Of a stretch of 14,743 nucleotides of DNA, positions 3,947 through 14,251 are shown piece after piece (positions within the stretch are counted from its first letter, which is position 1; every line of letters starts with the position of its first letter). Source of the stretch: a virus (taxonomy: Duplodnaviria > Heunggongvirae > Uroviricota > Caudoviricetes > Demerecviridae); IMG/VR virus record IMGVR_UViG_2974607751_000001, positions 99,533 through 114,275 of that record; one strand, 5' to 3'. The position numbers and the translations under genes were made by a program. The notes under the pieces are model-generated. The model was given only the letters and a program-made list of their open reading frames with translations, ran no database searches and had not been told where the DNA came from.

Positions 3947-4303
3947 TTATTCTGTTTCGGCGCTTTGGGTAAAGGTAGAAATGTCAATACCTTTTACCAT
4001 TTCATCGATCATTTCAGCAATATTGAAACTCTGTACCATTTCCAACATTGCCGCTTCCATTGCCGCGCCTGCTACCGCTTTTGCTTTCGCATTAGTCGGG
4101 GCGTACTGGTCAACCGCTACACTCAGTAGGTTAGCGATCACTACACGACCAATCGGCGTATCAATATAACCTTTAATCATAAACGGCGCTTTTTTCGCCG
4201 CTACTTTTGTGATTTGAGTCAGTGCAATTTTACCCGCTTCCAGTTTAGCAGCGTTTACAACGGCGGATTTGTTAGCGGCAACAATAGAAGATACTTTAGA
4301 CAT
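3947..4303 (-). CDS. Probable nested in-frame 118-aa product (MSKVSSIVAANK...)
   Basis: Internal AAAGGA RBS before the ATG at 4303, and an internal TTGACA-18-TAAACT promoter with its -35 at 4381-4386. Confidence 0.5.
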   Translation of the reverse strand: MSKVSSIVAANKSAVVNAAKLEAGKIALTQITKVAAKKAPFMIKGYIDTPIGRVVIANLLSVAVDQYAPTNAKAKAVAGAAMEAAMLEMVQSFNIAEMIDEMVKGIDISTFTQSAETE

Positions 4304-4981: not shown

Positions 4982-5011
4982 ATGATATAGATATTTGTTC
5001 GCTAGGGGCAA
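4982..5011 (-). promoter_or_regulatory. sigma70 promoter of the minus-strand pre-early operon
   Basis: TTGCCC-18-TATCAT with a T-rich UP-like tract upstream. Confidence 0.55.
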
Positions 5012-5197
5012 GAAAAAAGAAAAGGTTTTTTATTCCTTGCCTAACGCCTGTTTTTGTGCTAATCGCGCGTTTTCTATTTCTAGCTCTCTGTAAGCGTACA
5101 CAAGGCTTTATTATAATAAGGGTAGTAGTGAGAAAACCGCTTAGAATGCGTTTTAGGCCGCTTAAATTTGATTGCGGTTGTTACTGCTACCCTTTTA

Positions 5198-5217
5198 CCC
5201 TGTATATTTATACAGTA
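5198..5217. promoter_or_regulatory. LexA (SOS) box, copy B
   Basis: CCCTGTATATTTATACAGTA; the CTG-N10-CAG core is identical to that at 1686-1701. Confidence 0.7.
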
Positions 5218-5225
5218 GGATAACC

Positions 5226-5307
5226 TGTATATAAGTCTGTGGATAAGTCGCCAAATCGCCGCCTATTGCGTCAAGTTATTTTGTGCTGTGGATAACTTTG
5301 TGAATAA
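5226..5307 (-). promoter_or_regulatory. DnaA-box cluster, copy B
   Basis: On the minus strand: TTATTCACA (5299-5307), TTATCCACA (5287-5295), TTATCCACA (5238-5246), TTATATACA (5226-5234). Three match TTWTNCACA. Confidence 0.7.
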
Positions 5308-5873
5308 CCTAAACGATAGTGGTTCTCACTTAGCCGATAGTTTCTTATAGTTATTATTTTTCTTTAATTTATAAGTATATTATATAATATGAAATAGTTA
5401 GTTGGCTAATAGGTTTTTAGATTACTAATAGTCTGCTAACTGTTCCGGACGTTACAATCCACCAGCGTGATTATCATCCTAGCGATTGTTAGTCCGCTAA
5501 CCAATCAACGCACGTCTAAACTTATTTGTCAATGAAAAATAACAGCAGAAAATACTTTTTTGAAAAATCAAGTGGATAACTTATTAAATTTCATTTTTGC
5601 TTTTTGTATAAGTTATTAACAGGGTCTAAAACGCTCTGTAAGCGATTCTAAGCGCCTCAAAGGAAAAGATAGGCAATCATAAGGGGTACACCGAGAAAAC
5701 CTCACCACGAGGATTTTAGATTTTGTCAAGTAGGGCAAAGCAAATATAAATGAAAAAATTACTTGCTAAAATGGTTGTTTTAGTGTTATTCGCGCGCCCG
5801 TTTCATTAAATTTAGTGCGCCGCTGGACGTTTGCGGGTAGTGGTTTTCTTTACTTTTCTTTACAAAAATAAGG

Positions 5874-5902
5874 TTGCGCCGATTTGAGGAATAACCTATT
5901 AT
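5874..5902 (+). promoter_or_regulatory. Pre-early sigma70 promoter
   Basis: TTGCGC-17-TATTAT with an AT-rich upstream region. Confidence 0.7.
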
Positions 5903-5968
5903 TTATCTCGTAGGACGGCAAGACGGAAACGAAAGGCCAGACTACAACGGCGGGGAAGTTTACCGCTA

Positions 5969-5981
5969 TGCTCTTTAAAAA
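5969..5981 (+). promoter_or_regulatory. rrn-type boxA (NusB/NusE) element
   Basis: TGCTCTTTAAAAA in the leader downstream of the 5874 promoter. Confidence 0.7.
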
Positions 5982-6041
5982 CTAGGGAACATCTTAAAGC
6001 CTATCGGCGGTAAACTTAGATATTATAAGGAATCGACGATA

Positions 6042-6260
6042 ATGATCAAATCAAAAAACGCTTTAGTGATTAGTGCGAAACCTGCTAGCGCATTAGATAG
6101 CAGAACAAAAAATTTGTTGACAGTAGCGCAACGATCTGTAAAATACAGATTCAAGCAATACAAGAAAGGCAAGCAGCAAGGTCTGGAAATGGTGTGGCGT
6201 AATATAATGATTGATTTATATAACTCACATCAAATCGAAAAAAGTTTAAAAAACGCTTGA
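6042..6260 (+). CDS. Pre-early hypothetical protein (72 aa, basic)
   Basis: AAGGA RBS, ATG start, first gene after the promoter. Confidence 0.8.
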   Translation: MIKSKNALVISAKPASALDSRTKNLLTVAQRSVKYRFKQYKKGKQQGLEMVWRNIMIDLYNSHQIEKSLKNA

Positions 6261-6285
6261 CACGCTAGCCGATAGGTTTTAAGAT
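6257..6285 (+). promoter_or_regulatory. Pre-early sigma70 promoter
   Basis: TTGACA-17-TAAGAT; the -35 overlaps the upstream gene's TGA. Confidence 0.8.
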
Positions 6286-6300
6286 GTTCCCCGTAGTAAC

Positions 6301-6313
6301 TGCTCTTTAAAAA
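6301..6313 (+). promoter_or_regulatory. rrn-type boxA element
   Basis: TGCTCTTTAAAAA(TTTGGAT), about 10 nt after the expected start site. Confidence 0.75.
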
Positions 6314-6424
6314 TTTGGATAACGGTAATGTTTAGGCTAACTCCTAGCGGATTATAATCTAATAGCGTTTCAAAGTATCGAGGCGCTATTGTGGAATAAT
6401 CCCCAATAAACCGGAGTATTAAAA

Positions 6425-6676
6425 ATGCAAAACGTTATTACCGCGCCGAAAGTAGGTCAATCTGTTTTCATTCCTTTTGTAACTAAAACTGATGAATTAA
6501 CCGGAAAAGCCGAACGTATCAAAGGTGCGGCGCTTGATCCTTTCGATAAAATCGAAGCGGTTTACGCGGAAACGGAACGTAGCAACAACGGCAAGCCGAT
6601 TTATACCGTCCGTGTTAAATCTGGCGACGTTGTAAAGGTCATTCAGAAAGATGATAAATGGCAAGCCATAGCATAA
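6425..6676 (+). CDS. Conserved T5-family pre-early hypothetical protein (83 aa)
   Basis: GGAG RBS; MQNVITAPKVGQSVFIPFV start recalled from T5-like phages; lies immediately upstream of A2. Confidence 0.85.
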   Translation: MQNVITAPKVGQSVFIPFVTKTDELTGKAERIKGAALDPFDKIEAVYAETERSNNGKPIYTVRVKSGDVVKVIQKDDKWQAIA

Positions 6677-6921
6677 ATTAATGCGCCTTACATATCATGC
6701 TTAGTTAGGCAATAAAGATAACTCGAAACATTCCTAGCGTGAACGGAATAATAAAGAATTTAATATTCTAGCTTTAAATAGTGTTAACTGAATAAGCTGT
6801 ATTTCTTCATTAAGGCAAGGCGTTTAACTCGTATTCGACTTTAATTAGAAATTAACAGCTTATTAGGATTAACATTAGTTAATCATAATCCCTTAATTAA
6901 TAATTGAATGGAGTATTTATT

Positions 6922-7338
6922 ATGTCTAACGTTAAAACCGAAAAAACCGCAAAATTCTCTTGGAACGAAGAAAACACCGAAAAGGCTGTTTCTATGTATT
7001 CTGAAATGGTCGCTAAAAGCGGAATTGAATTTGCTAATAGTGACGGCTTAAAAGAGATTGCCGCCGCCGTTGGCGCTGCAAGTCCGGTGTCTGTACGTTC
7101 TAAACTGACAAGCGCAAAAGCGTACCAGAAAAGCGATAAACCGCGTAAAGTTGGCGGCGGGTCTAGTGTCCGTAAAGCTCACTATGTGCGCGTCATTGCT
7201 AAACACGCCATTGATAGCGGCATTGTAAAAGACGCTGACGATCTGGCAAGTCTGGAAAGTGCAAAACTGGAAACGCTGGACGCCGTAGCGCAATTGTTAG
7301 GCGTAGCGGAGGAAGTGAAACAGGCCGCAGGTGAATAA
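6922..7338 (+). CDS. A2: A2 protein (DNA-binding, needed for second-step transfer), 138 aa
   Basis: GGAG RBS before the ATG at 6922 (the track's TTG at 6904 is unlikely); FSWNEENT...SVRSKLTSAKAYQK signature; size and position upstream of A1. Confidence 0.9.
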   Translation: MSNVKTEKTAKFSWNEENTEKAVSMYSEMVAKSGIEFANSDGLKEIAAAVGAASPVSVRSKLTSAKAYQKSDKPRKVGGGSSVRKAHYVRVIAKHAIDSGIVKDADDLASLESAKLETLDAVAQLLGVAEEVKQAAGE

Positions 7339-7346
7339 ATTTTAAT

Positions 7347-7368
7347 TAGCGGGGAATAATCCCCGCTA
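7347..7368. terminator. Intergenic hairpin after A2 (attenuator/terminator-like)
   Basis: tagcgggga-ataa-tccccgcta; a 21-bp identical copy lies at 3919-3939. Confidence 0.5.
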
Positions 7369-7396
7369 TAATTTCCCTTTGACCGGAGTTATTAAA

Positions 7397-7624
7397 ATGA
7401 TTTTCTTTCCTAGTGAAGCGTTTATTTTAGGTTTATTTATAGTTGCCGCTATATTTATATTTAATTACGGCAAATATATAATCTCTATTATCGGCATTAA
7501 TTCAGCTTATGCCGCTGATATGTTTAAACGTCAAGCTAATAAACAAAAATATCTGGCGATTATATTTTTAACGCTGGCTATTAGTTGCGGTTTTAGTTCT
7601 AGTCTTATGCCAATTCTAGAATAA
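7397..7624 (+). CDS. Small membrane protein between A2 and A1 (75 aa)
   Basis: GGAG at 7385 favours the ATG at 7397; two hydrophobic segments. Confidence 0.8.
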   Translation: MIFFPSEAFILGLFIVAAIFIFNYGKYIISIIGINSAYAADMFKRQANKQKYLAIIFLTLAISCGFSSSLMPILE

Positions 7625-7732
7625 TATTGCAAATTATAACGCCTTTTAAATTGTCCTCACTTCAGGCAAGGCGTTATATTTGGCAATATTGCCAGTATTA
7701 ATATTTATCCCTCTATAGGAGTTGATTTAGTT

Positions 7733-9400
7733 ATGAATATTTCCGCAGAAAAACAAGCTCAAATTCTGAAAATGGCTGCTGACTTTAATTTCTATGGTAA
7801 GCGTTTACGCGCTACTAAATTGGAAGTTTGCGACGATATTTCAAAAGCTGTTTATGATACGCCGAAACATTCAACCGCAATCTGCGATTGGCTGGAAGCA
7901 AATAAGCCAGCGAAACCGAAAGCGGCGAAAGCTGAAAAGGCGATTAAAAATGATGATCGCCCCGAAGCGGCGGGAATTGTTTCTAGTACCGTTGAACAAT
8001 GGGAAGTTAAATCCGGTCGCCGTTTTATTCTAACGTCGATTCAAAATAATACTTTCCCGCATAAAAACTTTTTAGCGGCGCTTGTTAATTACGCTGAATA
8101 TTGCGGCGCTGAATTGCTAATCAGTAAATTCATTTATAATAAAAATGGATTCCAGAACGGCGACGGCAGCAAAGAAAAAATTAAATATGATTCAGCGTTT
8201 GATAAATATATCTGCGATAAAAACGTATTTTTAAATAATCGCCGCTTTGCTTTCATGTCTGAAATTAACGTATTACCAACGGCAGATTATCCGCTTTCAG
8301 GATTCGCAGAAACCGCCACGGCTTTAAATATTGACGGCCTCGCAATTGGTGCGGCAAAAATTACCGCTGAAAGTGTGCCAGCGTTAAAAGGTGAAATTGT
8401 GCGCCGTATGTATTCAACCGGAACGGCGACACTTAAAAACTACATTCAGCAAAAAGCAGGACAAAAAGCCGAGGCTTTACATAATTTCGGCGCTTTGCTG
8501 GTAGAATTTGACGACGACGGCGAATTTTTCGTTCGCCAGCTTGAAACAATGGACGAAAGCGGAATGTTCTATGATCTGAATATTTGCGCTACCGCTACCG
8601 GATGTTATGAAACATCGGGCCATGTTCTAGGCTTGCAATATGGCGATATTCACGCCGAAAAATTAGATGATGATTGCGCCGTTGCGTCATGGGCTAGTGA
8701 AAACAGCTTGCTTGATATTCTCAAGCCTAAATATCAGTTTATTCATGATGTGCATGATTTTACATCCCGCAATCATCATAACCGCGCTAGTGGTGTATTC
8801 CTTGCTAAACAGTACGCCGCAGGACGTGACAAGGTTTTAGATGATCTTATCGATACTGGACGCGTTTTAGAGTCTATGGAGCGTGATTTCTCTCAAACAA
8901 TCATTGTGGAATCTAACCATGATTTAGCATTATCCCGCTGGCTTGATGATCGTAACGCTAACATTAAGGACGATCCCGCAAACGCCGAGCTATATCACAG
9001 CCTAAACGCTGCGATTTACGCCGCAATTGCAAAACAAGATGATACCTTTAACGTGCTAGATTACGCCTTGCGTAGTGTCGCAGGTTGCGAATTTAACGCT
9101 ATTTTCCTGACGACAGACCAATCATTCAAAATCGCTGGCATTGAGTGCGGCGTACATGGTCACAATGGCATTAACGGCAGTCGGGGCAATCCTAAGCAGT
9201 TTAAAAAGTTGGGACGCCTTAACACTGGTCACACTCACACGGCTAGCATTTACGGCGGCGTTTATACTGCTGGCGTGGCGGGGTCGCTTGATATGGGTTA
9301 CAACGTGGGCGCGTCAAGCTGGACGCAAACGCATTTAATTACCTATGCAAACGGGCAACGTACTTTGATTGACTTCAAAAACGGTAAATTCTTTGCATAA
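7733..9400 (+). CDS. A1: A1 protein (host DNA degradation and second-step transfer; metallophosphoesterase-like nuclease), 555 aa
   Basis: AGGAG RBS; calcineurin-like motifs GDIH, HDVHD, SNHD, HGH and GHTH; size and synteny as in T5. Confidence 0.93.
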   Translation: MNISAEKQAQILKMAADFNFYGKRLRATKLEVCDDISKAVYDTPKHSTAICDWLEANKPAKPKAAKAEKAIKNDDRPEAAGIVSSTVEQWEVKSGRRFILTSIQNNTFPHKNFLAALVNYAEYCGAELLISKFIYNKNGFQNGDGSKEKIKYDSAFDKYICDKNVFLNNRRFAFMSEINVLPTADYPLSGFAETATALNIDGLAIGAAKITAESVPALKGEIVRRMYSTGTATLKNYIQQKAGQKAEALHNFGALLVEFDDDGEFFVRQLETMDESGMFYDLNICATATGCYETSGHVLGLQYGDIHAEKLDDDCAVASWASENSLLDILKPKYQFIHDVHDFTSRNHHNRASGVFLAKQYAAGRDKVLDDLIDTGRVLESMERDFSQTIIVESNHDLALSRWLDDRNANIKDDPANAELYHSLNAAIYAAIAKQDDTFNVLDYALRSVAGCEFNAIFLTTDQSFKIAGIECGVHGHNGINGSRGNPKQFKKLGRLNTGHTHTASIYGGVYTAGVAGSLDMGYNVGASSWTQTHLITYANGQRTLIDFKNGKFFA

Positions 9401-9453
9401 TTAAATTTAATCGGCGGTTGAAATATACCGCCATTAATAAAAGGTAAAATTAA

Positions 9454-9732
9454 ATGGCTATTAAAATTAATCTTCCAGTTAGTAAAAACGCCCCTGATAC
9501 ATGGGCAATTGATACCATAATTCATGGTACTGTATACCGTAATTTAAAAGATGGTGACTGTTATATTTATCAAAATGAAAATAATGGCCATACTTATATA
9601 ATTGAATCAGGAGATTTTTATTCCTTTGAAACTGATTATGAAGCAAAGGAATATTTACAAGATAATGATATTCCTGATGTATGGAAAGAAACTAACCTTG
9701 CTTTTGTAGTGAGTTTAGAAATTAATAAATAA
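9454..9732 (+). CDS. AT-rich hypothetical protein (92 aa, acidic)
   Basis: AAGGT RBS, ATG start, fills the gap between A1 and the 130-aa gene. Confidence 0.8.
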   Translation: MAIKINLPVSKNAPDTWAIDTIIHGTVYRNLKDGDCYIYQNENNGHTYIIESGDFYSFETDYEAKEYLQDNDIPDVWKETNLAFVVSLEINK

Positions 9733-9770
9733 TTTAATCCCGTAAATATAAATAATCTGGAGTTATAAAC

Positions 9771-10163
9771 ATGAAAAACCAAAACATTCCTTTTGACCGC
9801 GCTACTTCTTCCATCGTTCTAGTTTATTCTAATGGCGAACGTTATCACGTCGAGGCGGGGCAAGTTAATTTTGATTTGCTGAATTATAACGACGCTTTGC
9901 AGGTTACTACCTTTGCTTATGATACCGGCAAAGTGGCAAGCCATACAAAAGCAAAAGGCGTTTACGCTGATACTTTGACAGTGCAAACAATCATTATTGA
10001 TGCGCTTAAATCCGGCCTAGCGTTTGCGGTTGTTAAGCCGTGTCCGGTCTGCAATCCCGAAGCTAGCGCGATGGTTTATACTTGCGCGGGGATTCGTTCT
10101 AGCGTACATGGTGAAGATCTTAGCTTTATTGGTGACGCGCTAGCGTATGGCCTCACTAACTAA
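9771..10163 (+). CDS. Conserved T5-family pre-early hypothetical protein (130 aa)
   Basis: GGAG RBS; MKNQNIPFDR start recalled for the gene adjacent to dmp. Confidence 0.85.
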   Translation: MKNQNIPFDRATSSIVLVYSNGERYHVEAGQVNFDLLNYNDALQVTTFAYDTGKVASHTKAKGVYADTLTVQTIIIDALKSGLAFAVVKPCPVCNPEASAMVYTCAGIRSSVHGEDLSFIGDALAYGLTN

Positions 10164-10170
10164 TAGTTAA

Positions 10171-10199
10171 TTGAACATTGCCAGCTAATCTAATATAAT
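10171..10199 (+). promoter_or_regulatory. sigma70 promoter for dmp, overlapped by a 12-bp inverted repeat
   Basis: TTGAAC-17-TATAAT; inverted repeat ttgccagctaat (10178-10189) / attagctggcaa (10198-10209). Confidence 0.6.
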
Positions 10200-10246
10200 T
10201 AGCTGGCAAGATTGAACTAACTACCCTTAACAGGAGAAACAAATAA

Positions 10247-10981
10247 ATGAATAAAGTTAACATGAATATTACCCGCACTTTCCCGCATATTTCCCGCGTT
10301 ATGATTTGGGATTTAGACGGAACGATTATAAATTCTTTCCATCGTGTAGCGCCTTGCTTTGATAACGCTGGCAATCTGGATTTAGTTAAGTATTCCCGCG
10401 AAGCCTGCAAACATGATTTAATTATGCAAGATTCTTTATTGCCATTGGTTGAATATATGCGCCAATGTATGAATGATGCAAATACATTAAATATTATTTG
10501 TACCGCGCGCCTAATGTCTAAAAGCGATTATTTTTATTTACGCAAACAAGGCTTGCGCGGGCGCGGTAATAGTAATATTCGCGTATTTTCCCGCGATACA
10601 TTACACAAATACTTTGAAGCGGATAAGGTTAGCGAAATATACCACAGCAAAGACGCTGTATATAAATCTTATTACTTTGAACTGTTTAAACAGCTATATC
10701 CTAATGCTGATTTTACAATGATTGATGATCATAAAGGTGTATTATCGGCGGCGGCAAGTGCTGGATTTAAAACGCTGGACGCTCAAGCCGTTAATGATAT
10801 CCTATCAATCGGGGTAACATTGATTGGTGAAACCTTTATCGATGAATCGTTAGACGAGGATAATGATTATCAATTCCTAGCCGATAGATTAAAAATGTGT
10901 TGGGAAGGTATGACCGAGGAAGAACGCGCGGAATATAGTACCACACCGCAACAATACATTGAGAAATTAAAAGTTGCCTAA
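10247..10981 (+). CDS. dmp: Deoxynucleoside-5'-monophosphatase (HAD family), 244 aa
   Basis: HAD motif I WDLDGT, ICTAR and IDDH motifs; last gene of the pre-early operon as in T5. Confidence 0.93.
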   Translation: MNKVNMNITRTFPHISRVMIWDLDGTIINSFHRVAPCFDNAGNLDLVKYSREACKHDLIMQDSLLPLVEYMRQCMNDANTLNIICTARLMSKSDYFYLRKQGLRGRGNSNIRVFSRDTLHKYFEADKVSEIYHSKDAVYKSYYFELFKQLYPNADFTMIDDHKGVLSAAASAGFKTLDAQAVNDILSIGVTLIGETFIDESLDEDNDYQFLADRLKMCWEGMTEEERAEYSTTPQQYIEKLKVA

Positions 10982-12469: not shown

Positions 12470-14251
12470 ATGAGTTTTTTCGCAGGAAAATTTAGTGATG
12501 GTAAAACTGTATTATCTCTAAACGCTGCTAATGGTGGTGATATAAATCAGCACTACTCTCCAAATACTAATAGTATTTTCCACTCAGATATGCCATTTGT
12601 CCTAGTTGATGGGACTTATGAGGCTGCTCTAGGTGATGCAGGTAATGGGTACTTTGTTACTCAGATGCCATGGGATATTATAAATATTAAATCCAATGAT
12701 CCTGGTAGAGTTATATTAACTGCTATTGAGATAAACGGTACTCATAGGGGTTTCCTTAATGGTACCCAATCTCAGGTTGGTCAGTTCTTAACATTCTTCG
12801 AAGATCAACCACGTGCTGGTGCTGAACTAGCTATAACATCTGCTTTTGCAATCGGTGATAGTTTAGCTCATGGTACTTATATCTATAATGGTGGTCTTGG
12901 TCATGAGGAATCTATTGCTAGGCAGGGAACTGGTGGTACTTTACTACAATCTTCCGGTTTCCAGATCTTTAGACCTGGTGGTGTTTCCGCAGGTGAAGCT
13001 ATTTCCAGAGCCTGGGGATTAATGGGCTTTCCTACTGGTGTTTCTACTGTTCCTATAGATGGTGGTAACGCCGATTATTGGGAACCTAACTGGCAAGCGC
13101 CTGTTGGTTCTGCTGGTAGAGGCCATGATTGGTTTTACGTTTGTAGTTCTAATATTCGTGGCTTCGCAGGTAAAAAAGGCGTACTACCGGATAACGTAAA
13201 CGTTATTTATCAATCTCCTGCGTATCCAGAAAAAATATATGTTTGTAGAGGTTCTACTTCTAATATGGCTGCTCAGTCTGCTAGAAAGGTGTATGTACAG
13301 GACTGGTATAACGTTACGCCAACTAAAGTTATTTGGTACGTGCTAAATCTGCGCTATTCTAATGGTAGTATGGGAGTTTCTGGTAATCCATTTACTGGTT
13401 CAGATATCTTAATATCACCATCTAACTTTACTATTAAAGGTGTTAGTCTACCAAATACAGGCTATAAATTTATTAACCAGAATGCTTTCGGAAACTTAGG
13501 CTATCGCCCTGATATGGAATATGTTGGTAATAACGCTGCGTATACCGGAGTTTTTGGTGATAATACTGCACGATGTGAATTCATCGGCTCTAGTAATGGT
13601 GGGTTATGGTCGCCCGTTAACTATGGGGGTGCAGCTTCTCAAATTAGCTTATATAAATTTGGTGTAGGTAAACAATGGTATGTAGATACTAATACTAACT
13701 CCATTGGTAATGAACATGGATCTGTGTGGAGTCCTAGTACTGTACCTCTCAGATTATTCCCAGGCAACGTTGCAAGTACTTATGTAGGGGACGATATAAC
13801 TCCATCCTACCCTGGTGCTGGTGACTTCTACACACCTTTGGCCACAGTTTGGTTGGGATTACCAAATGCTCACTCTACTGTTATATTAACTACTGAAGTT
13901 ATTATGGGTAATCTTAATACTGCTGGTATGCCTGTACGTACTTATGGTGGTAGTGCTTGGCAGGTACAAGGCAGACGTCAACAAAGTTATACAGCTGGTG
14001 ATGGTGTATTCCATCAGATTCTTACTCTGCCACCTGGCTATCTAGTACCATATCACAGCACAACTTCCTATAGTTATACCCAAACGTGGGCTAGTAGACC
14101 TGATGAGATGGCTTTTCGTAGAAATGGGTATATTTATACAGTAAAAAACCTTGGTAATGGTAATGTTGAGTTGGGTGTTATTATTCATGCTGCAGAAGCA
14201 GCTGCTATCTTCTTACCAAGACTACGTGTAACAGTTCAACGCCTAACCTAA
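12470..14251 (+). CDS. oad: Receptor-binding protein (pb5/Oad/Hrs family), 593 aa; probably the BtuB-binding class
   Basis: MSFFAGK N-terminus, IFHSDM motif and ...VQRLT C-terminus typical of pb5; located between llp and terS. Confidence 0.92.

Follow-up and report, generated by a model that had tools for sequence, protein, structure and literature searches.

Consensus boxA sequences in the pre-early leader of a T5-like phage and their probable part in host Nus-factor antitermination

During the pre-early stage of T5 infection only 8% of the phage genome has entered the cell, and entry of the remainder depends on prior synthesis of A1 and A2; to our knowledge, how the host RNA polymerase becomes fast and termination-proof at this stage has not been addressed. 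The DNA analysed here is a window of 14,743 nucleotides (nt; the whole stretch under analysis) that comprises bases 99533–114275 of a 114,275-base-pair (bp) genome (IMG/VR virus record IMGVR_UViG_2974607751_000001). The window contains the first-step-transfer (pre-early) region, is 94–98% identical to Salmonella and Escherichia phages of the T5-like group (Demerecviridae), and is oriented such that its + strand is the T5 minus strand. The gene order of its + strand operon, hdi-T5.007-A2-A1-dmp, is identical to the T5 annotation, as judged from open reading frames (ORFs), PHROG matches, and T5 records. The leader of this operon contains two copies of a 13-nt sequence that matches boxA of ribosomal RNA (rRNA) operons (rrn). 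Sequence comparison and analogy suggest that the two 13-mers are probably functional rrn-type BoxA RNA elements, with Nus-factor antitermination as the best reading of their role, and that a T5-like phage probably borrows the host antitermination machinery as T7 does.

The sequence TGCTCTTTAAAAA is present, without mismatch, at positions 5969–5981 (boxA1) and 6301–6313 (boxA2), both on the + strand and both in the sense orientation of the hdi-T5.007-A2-A1-dmp operon. An earlier note on this DNA had reported an identical motif at 5969 and 6301, and this is confirmed; exact matches occur in 0 of 200 dinucleotide-preserving shuffles. No further copy with two or fewer mismatches is present on either strand of the window, and hence none is present in the opposite operon of the window phage, as the same note had observed. 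Across all 114,275 bp of the genome, YGCTCTTTAAMAA, the strict form, has no occurrence other than these two (5969 and 6301), and the looser pattern GYTCTTTAANA has five matches, each of which lies within a coding frame, antisense to one, or 5′ of a promoter. As RNA, each copy reads TGCUCUUUAAAAA, and boxA2 continues with a UUUGGA extension, spanning 6301–6319 in all. The looser pattern is the gamma-proteobacterial BoxA consensus (PMC5725501), which both copies fit, each containing GCTCTTTAAAA inside TGCTCTTTAAAAA.

The resemblance to Escherichia coli (E. coli) rrn extends into the flanks. The boxA of the E. coli rrnH leader is TGCTCTTTAACAA, and the E. coli 16S–23S spacer reads TGCTCTTTAAAAATCTGGAT versus TGCTCTTTAAAAATTTGGAT in the phage, copy 2 being identical to the spacer at 19/20 positions, including TYTGGAT. 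The earlier note had thus given the spacer correctly, and its classification of the motif as rrn-type boxA is borne out, since the 13-mer fits the consensus and equals the spacer boxA. An unguided BLAST search of 6286–6335 against 5,426 E. coli genomes, in line with a comparison to rrn that the note had proposed, returned the rrnH leader (25/28 identical, including 5′ CCCCGT-N3-AAC). An Rfam scan of 5000–8000 and 6250–6450 returned no family above threshold; the only suggestive match was to StyR-44 (RF01830), which models the rrn spacer starting at boxA and reaching 23S; its score of 20.7 bits, owed to the first ~20 nt, is far below the gathering threshold of 54, as compared with 121.6 bits for E. 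coli.

Both copies are located on the sense strand of a transcribed leader, 3′ of a promoter, with start sites predicted from promoter positions. The earlier note had placed them behind two tandem promoters; both copies do lie 3′ of promoters, but there are three of these, P1, P-H22, and P-D/E20. P1 (5874–5902, +; TTGCGC-17-TATTAT; predicted start ~5909) is the best σ70 match upstream of boxA1, is preceded by tandem TTTCTTTAC repeats at 5844–5863, and has its −10 element 66 nt upstream of boxA1. In 28 non-redundant relatives its hexamers are almost invariant and its spacer is variable, the usual mark of a real promoter. P-H22 (6117–6144, +; TTGACA-16-TAAAAT) scores 11/12 in a promoter scan, is annotated at the matching T5 site, and lies inside hdi, between the two boxA copies. 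P-D/E20 (6257–6285, +; TTGACA-17-TAAGAT) was found in the same scan, is annotated in T5, and has its −10 element 15 nt upstream of boxA2, which is near the 5′ end of P-D/E20 transcripts, at ~+9. P1 transcripts carry both boxA copies, and P-H22 and P-D/E20 transcripts carry boxA2. Separately, tandem (T)CTTTAC repeats precede P1 in a unit (window 5844–5902) of the form CTTTAC-N4-CTTTACAA..TTGCRN-17-TAT(T/A) that is conserved out to Klebsiella and Proteus phages (L042, ~2597–2660; L043), and in Proteus phage L043 a P1-type unit heads both divergent operons (~4134–4190, +; 3888–3830, −).

Conservation of the element is deep. We gathered 38 viral loci through the downstream protein T5.007, a choice independent of the motif, and found YGCTCTTTAAAAA at the boxA1 position in 38/38. 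Copy 2 is limited to the window clade (L004–L006) and, by position, to a 58%-identical relative (G001), which has three boxA copies, and Klebsiella phages; the copy-2 leader is present in ~138 phage records and annotated in none. All 20 distinct copies among the relatives fit the BoxA consensus. Specifically, the core GCUCUUUAA is constant in all 20, except in one GUUC variant, and the only other differences are at position 1 (Y/A) and position 11 (A/C), positions that also vary between host copies; in particular, the copy 2 variants of the window clade, TGCTCTTTAACAA and CGCTCTTTAACAA (AACAA type), are variants used by the host. In about three-quarters of the phage copies, boxA is directly followed by UUUGG(A), which stretches the conserved element past the 11–13 nt usually named boxA. 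Examples of this extension are seen at window positions 6314–6319 and in loci L040, L042, and L045–L047, and related forms in T7 (UCUGG; L142, 426–430) and in the E. coli spacer (UCUGGA; L001, ~5038–5043). A candidate replacement for boxA2 in the T5 clade, GTTCTTTAAAT (for example in L027, ~95 nt after P-D/E20), was not counted, since its core varies (TTCTTT or TTCCTT); it lies in an extra ~60-nt leader segment of that clade and agrees with 10/11 BoxA consensus positions.

More distant members of the family, fetched through A1, carry boxA in the same setting. The Klebsiella Sugarlandvirus has two copies, the Proteus Novosibvirus has five, of which four lie in the A1 operon leader and one heads the divergent operon, and Vibrio phages 70E34-6, JSF12, and PG07, of three genera, have one each. 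In the Klebsiella, Proteus, and Vibrio pre-early regions the copies lie 6–66 nt after a σ70 −10 element, nearly all of them at 6–36 nt, and 8/16 boxA-associated promoters have a perfect TTGACA; the DNA around the copies is otherwise unalignable. In the whole genomes that have consensus copies (100–127 kb), the 12-mer is confined to pre-early leaders, and reversed-pattern controls give 0–1 matches. Across 264 kb of related loci, 52 strict copies are sense and one is on the other strand, as compared with a chance expectation of ~0.016 per strand, and the single opposite-strand copy is sense to its own divergent operon. Among the phages examined, no boxA lies in the opposite pre-early operon other than this copy (Proteus phage L043, 3793–3805, minus strand), which leaves 19 nt to the first start codon, a spacing like that of suhB.

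The structure around boxA1 reveals a larger module. The minimum-free-energy fold of the P1 transcript includes a boxB-like hairpin (5949–5967, +; GGCGG, 9-nt loop, CCGCU) directly 5′ of boxA1 and ending 1 nt before it; the T5 clade keeps the 5-bp hairpin as GGCGG/CCGCC. No such hairpin precedes boxA2 in P-D/E20 transcripts, which start too late to include one. On the 3′ side, a 24-nt arm (5985–6008, +; T5 repeat IRA) begins 3 nt after boxA1 and is 96% complementary to 6268–6291 (+; T5 repeat IRA′), which overlaps the spacer and −10 element of P-D/E20 and ends 9 nt before boxA2. The resulting helix encloses a protein gene, hdi (6042–6260, +; 72 amino acids), rather than an rRNA. In the minimum-free-energy fold of the full P1 transcript, the hairpin is formed, boxA1 is unpaired, and the long helix is formed (z = −5.2). 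In a duplex scan the helix scores 47, as compared with 19.6 ± 3.2 for random 45-nt windows of the window phage, and the same script applied to E. coli rrnH recovers the 16S leader–trailer helix, which starts at +0 after boxA as compared with +3 here.

The helix is a property of several clades. An arm starting 0–3 nt after boxA is also present in the T5 clade (26 bp), the 58%-identical relative (31 bp), a Klebsiella phage, and a Proteus phage (18 bp, two genes enclosed), with scores across clades of 29–50 against the same null. In each of them the second arm is placed immediately ahead of the next promoter and its boxA. The arm sequences change between genera and complementarity is kept, most mismatches being G·U in the sense RNA, and an RNAalifold consensus recovers the helix with compensatory pairs. 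In the Klebsiella, Proteus, and G001 phages, the 3′ arm covers the −10 element of the promoter that precedes the next boxA. Comparative sequence evidence thus places boxA1 within an rrn-like module of hairpin, boxA, and long-range helix, which the earlier note had overlooked. The helix arms are the same DNA as T5 "Repeat Region 1" with its IRA/IRA′ repeats, described as conserved and presumably important (Davison, bioRxiv 10.1101/866236); that preprint gives no function for Repeat Region 1, and the words boxA, Nus, antitermination, and rRNA are absent from it. A model of rrn transcription summarised elsewhere has boxA tether the 5′ arm close to the RNA exit channel until the trailer comes out (PMC10250234).

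These observations can be assembled into a mechanism. Unmodified host RNA polymerase would start at P1, P-H22, or P-D/E20 and transcribe boxA; NusB–NusE(S10) would bind the boxA RNA and, together with NusA, NusG, and SuhB, would turn the polymerase into an rrn-type antitermination complex. Such a complex would be faster, pause less, and resist Rho, and would reach A2, A1, and dmp over ~5 kb that include several untranslated stretches (133, 164, and 227 nt). A phage N-like factor would be superfluous, given that infection begins with these transcripts and that boxA has the full host consensus; indeed, expression of an N-like gene before them is impossible. Since boxA1 is laid out as in an rrn leader, the 5′ arm, once anchored, may pair with the 3′ arm during exit of the latter from the polymerase, and this pairing would close hdi off in a 24-bp duplex, a likely substrate of RNase III, just before boxA2.

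Taken together, the comparative evidence for function of the element is strong, and several observations weigh against the antitermination reading. First, most of the operon is translated, translation already protects from Rho, and no convincing terminator that would need to be overridden was seen within the operon. Second, T5 and 24/29 non-redundant relatives have no boxA2 behind P-D/E20, so that the strongest promoters of these phages work without a consensus boxA; in T5, P-H22 and P-D/E20 drive A2 and A1 with no such element. The earlier note had taken absence of the motif from close relatives as grounds for refutation: copy 1 withstands this and copy 2 does not, and the description "essential" in the same note is too strong for a phage family in which T5 manages in this way. 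Third, close relatives are 85–98% identical across the region, so that conservation among them says little and the argument rests on the distant genera. Among these, Vibrio phage Chazly21 is without boxA, and Aeromonas phage AhP_Mru1 has only a 2-mismatch boxA at the expected place, the one match in the whole Aeromonas phage genome being a GTTC variant far from the A1 region. Fourth, in the minimum-free-energy fold of the 117-nt nascent RNA, an alternative local hairpin forms (5956–5966 with 6007–6017, +; an 11-bp perfect inverted repeat that encloses boxA1 and the 5′ arm), and boxA1 is partly paired; this hairpin is not maintained in L010 and L023. On balance, the proposal of the earlier note that host Nus factors are hijacked for N-independent antitermination gains from the comparative evidence and from the precedent of T7, as far as the latter is known through a secondary citation, and loses from the lineage-specific distribution of copy 2; we consider it probable. 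A full-text literature search returned no paper linking T5-type phages or the pre-early stage with boxA, NusB, or antitermination, older subscription papers on T5 promoters being outside its scope.

A more ambitious proposal, which we put forward tentatively and consider well short of even in probability, is that T5-like phages surround a protein gene with a small-scale copy of the rRNA operon design (hairpin, boxA, leader–trailer helix, second boxA). The antitermination complex would then also act as an RNA chaperone, keeping the 5′ arm with the polymerase until the 3′ arm appears: hdi would be looped out, clamped in a 24-bp duplex, and cut by RNase III, and the polymerase would be reloaded at boxA2 for A2, A1, and dmp. 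If true, this would be the first use of the folding function of the rrn complex for an mRNA, and would give a function to T5 Repeat Region 1.

A related alternative, unlikely as the principal role and able to coexist with antitermination, shifts the emphasis to RNA processing. Here the main service of boxA would be to keep the 5′ arm close to the polymerase, the 24-bp helix around hdi would form reliably and be cut by RNase III, and termination resistance would be a side effect; through cutting, the level and lifetime of the toxic hdi message would be fixed, and the downstream message would gain its 5′ end. This would account for the arm abutting boxA in every clade that has the helix, as in E. 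coli rrnH, for the complementarity kept despite sequence change in the window clade, T5 clade, G001, Klebsiella, and Proteus phages, and for the G·U character of most helix mismatches. It has precedents in the rrn boxA–boxC anchoring model (PMC10250234) and in T7, where boxA is directly followed by an RNase III site hairpin. It fits poorly with the Vibrio copies and several Proteus copies, which have no adjacent long helix, and with boxA2, which itself has none; moreover, an inverted repeat that tracks a promoter could stay alike by gene conversion.

The number and placement of the copies would also suit a decoy, in which abundant boxA RNA soaks up NusB, NusE, and SuhB, starves host rrn, and aids host shut-off. 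Copies do lie 10–60 nt from strong consensus promoters and are often multiplied (five in the Proteus phage, three in G001), and a transcribed plasmid boxA can reportedly compete for NusB. We nevertheless regard this role as improbable, given that T5 has one copy only, behind its weakest-looking promoter, that a sponge has no need of an rrn-like hairpin and helix, and that T5-type host shut-off is attributed to A1 and DNA degradation (T5 record notes).

Comparably doubtful is suhB-style repression, in which the boxA-bound Nus complex would block the translation start of the gene that follows and favour termination by Rho. Repression is, besides antitermination, a known action of BoxA (PMC5725501), and the Proteus minus-strand copy lies close enough to its start codon for this; in the window, however, 60 nt separate the end of boxA1 from the hdi start codon and 111 nt separate the end of boxA2 from the T5.007 start codon, most copies in relatives are >40 nt away, and damping genes that are needed within minutes seems counter-productive. 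A feature of the DNA without any RNA role, in which the 13-bp direct and 24-bp inverted repeats are scars of an hdi mobile cassette or paired operator sites, has in its favour the textbook insertion look (direct repeat, inverted repeat, gene, inverted repeat, direct repeat) and the fact that A2 is a DNA-binding protein, but is scarcely credible, and we reject the mobile-element, target-duplication, and operator-pair versions alike, given that the direct repeat is the host boxA consensus, that boxA stands alone behind promoters in Vibrio and Proteus phages and T7, that the gaps between direct and inverted repeats differ (3 versus 9 nt), that T5 has the inverted repeats without a second direct repeat, that every copy is on the transcribed strand, and that the arms change between genera and the 13-mer does not.

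The genes that antitermination would serve lie downstream of boxA2, from T5.007 to dmp (6425–10981, +). In order on the + strand, and assigned from ORFs, PHROG matches, and T5 gene order, they are T5.007 (6425–6676), A2 (6904–7338), T5.005 (7379–7624), A1 (7733–9400), T5.003 (9454–9732), T5.002 (9771–10163), and dmp (10247–10981). Upstream of them, hdi matches phrog_4718 and has the position of T5.008, which is Hdi, an FtsZ-targeting inhibitor of host division (PMC10714956). A leader hairpin (6349–6402, +; inverted repeat I3) lies just 5′ of the T5.007 ribosome-binding site. T5.009, a 35-codon ORF annotated in T5 (L003, 4915–5022, corresponding to window ~5925–6041), overlaps boxA1 and the helix arm; its reading frame is broken in the window phage, indicating that the leader over boxA1 is non-coding here and that T5.009 is probably not a gene. 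Public RNA runs were available as assembled contigs only: these span the stretch in relatives, starts, ends, strand, and processing are not readable from them, and DNA carry-over is possible.

Other differences and likenesses among the relatives concern the surroundings. In T5, an HNH homing endonuclease gene, hegG, with its own promoter lies upstream of Repeat Region 1 (L003, 5411–5929); the corresponding position in the window (~5230–5800) has no such gene, only ~800 nt of non-coding DNA. The T5.007–A2 intergenic stretch (6680–6866) is a variable spacer, with ~185–199 nt swapped or skipped in contigs of relatives. A search for exact 12-mers shared between the window and the distant phages failed as a footprint for boxA, because the distant copies use the AACAA variant, and found other conserved non-coding words instead. 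A LexA-box-like palindrome, CTGTATATTTATACAG (1685–1702, 5200–5217, and 14128–14141), recurs word for word in Klebsiella and several Vibrio pre-early regions, and AAAACCGCTTAGAATG (5133) and CTCTAAAACGCTCTGTA (1729 and 5625) are likewise common to them.

If the antitermination reading is right, dependence on Nus factors would add a host requirement, new and easy to test, to what is known of a large phage family, among whose members are many phages of Salmonella, E. coli, Klebsiella, Proteus, and Vibrio studied for therapy. The conservation of T5 Repeat Region 1 (IRA/IRA′), which T5 reviews name as important while giving it no function, would also be explained. The device also seems widespread among virulent phages, since GCTCTTTAAMAATTTGGA, boxA followed by TTTGGA, is present in at least 92 stretches of IMG/VR viral contigs (L050–L129). 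Among the matches listed, many are contigs of 39–46 kb with the motif 600–1500 nt from an end and a TTGACA-type promoter or T7/T3-like context; some, again among the matches listed, may be host rrn in prophage calls, such as L125, which has tRNA-like sequence upstream. T7 and the viral contigs together point to rrn-type boxA as a common device of virulent gamma-proteobacterial phages, beyond rRNA operons and lambdoid phages.

How, then, does the locus compare with the systems in which BoxA is known, namely rrn operons, lambdoid nut sites, suhB-type mRNAs, and T7? The E. coli rrn leader carries boxB, boxA, and boxC, and the spacer carries a further boxA, read by NusB, NusE, NusA, NusG, SuhB, and S4 (rrnTAC). 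The phage boxA is identical to the spacer boxA at 13/13 positions and to the leader boxA at 12/13. As in rrnH, where a hairpin ends 3 nt before boxA, a hairpin lies just 5′ of boxA1, a helix arm follows within 0–3 nt, and a second boxA lies beyond the helix. The phage differs in that it has no boxC, UCUGUGUGGG being absent from the 45 nt 3′ of either copy, as compared with a placement 18–19 nt after boxA in the rrn leader (PMC10250234). It also differs in that its helix encloses the 72-codon hdi with an internal promoter instead of an rRNA, in that its 3′ arm doubles as a promoter core, and in that the element sits on a virulent phage and is known here through its sequence.

In lambdoid phages, nut sites comprise boxA plus boxB, read by N with Nus factors, and the lambda boxA is shortened. 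The likeness to nut sites is that a phage boxA RNA modifies host polymerase, or in the present case would do so, and that the C-first variant of T5, CGCTCTT, resembles lambda boxA. In contrast, the hairpin precedes boxA1, an order found in rrn rather than in nut sites, and boxA has the full consensus in the T5-like phage versus the shortened form in lambda. An inverted-repeat scan and folding found no local hairpin directly after either copy, as a nut-type layout would have, no search for an N-like gene being part of this comparison. The suhB-type mRNAs resemble the window in having a consensus BoxA in the leader of a protein gene, but there BoxA lies within ~50 nt of the start codon and represses (PMC5725501), whereas the window copies lie farther upstream, at the distances given above, and are multiplied behind promoters.

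The closest parallel is T7, in which CGCTCTTTAACAA-TCTGG is located ~60 nt after promoter A3 and is the only copy in the genome. Mutations in T7 boxA make the host-polymerase inhibitor Gp2 dispensable, which has been interpreted to mean that early transcription loses its antitermination (Savalia 2010, J Mol Biol 402:118, as cited in PMC3709561, through which we know it). Both are virulent phages with tandem strong host-polymerase promoters (A1–A3 in T7), a boxA confined to the early leader, and an RNase III-type duplex, and without an N protein; the window likewise has boxA behind tandem early promoters, confined to the leader, with a long duplex after it. T7 differs in belonging to another phage family, in having one copy, and in having a local hairpin instead of a gene-spanning helix; its element has genetic support, as reported in the citing paper, where those of T5-type phages are known by their sequence. 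The T5-like case is, in these terms, a T7-style early-leader boxA, and the gene-spanning, rrn-like helix is its less expected part.

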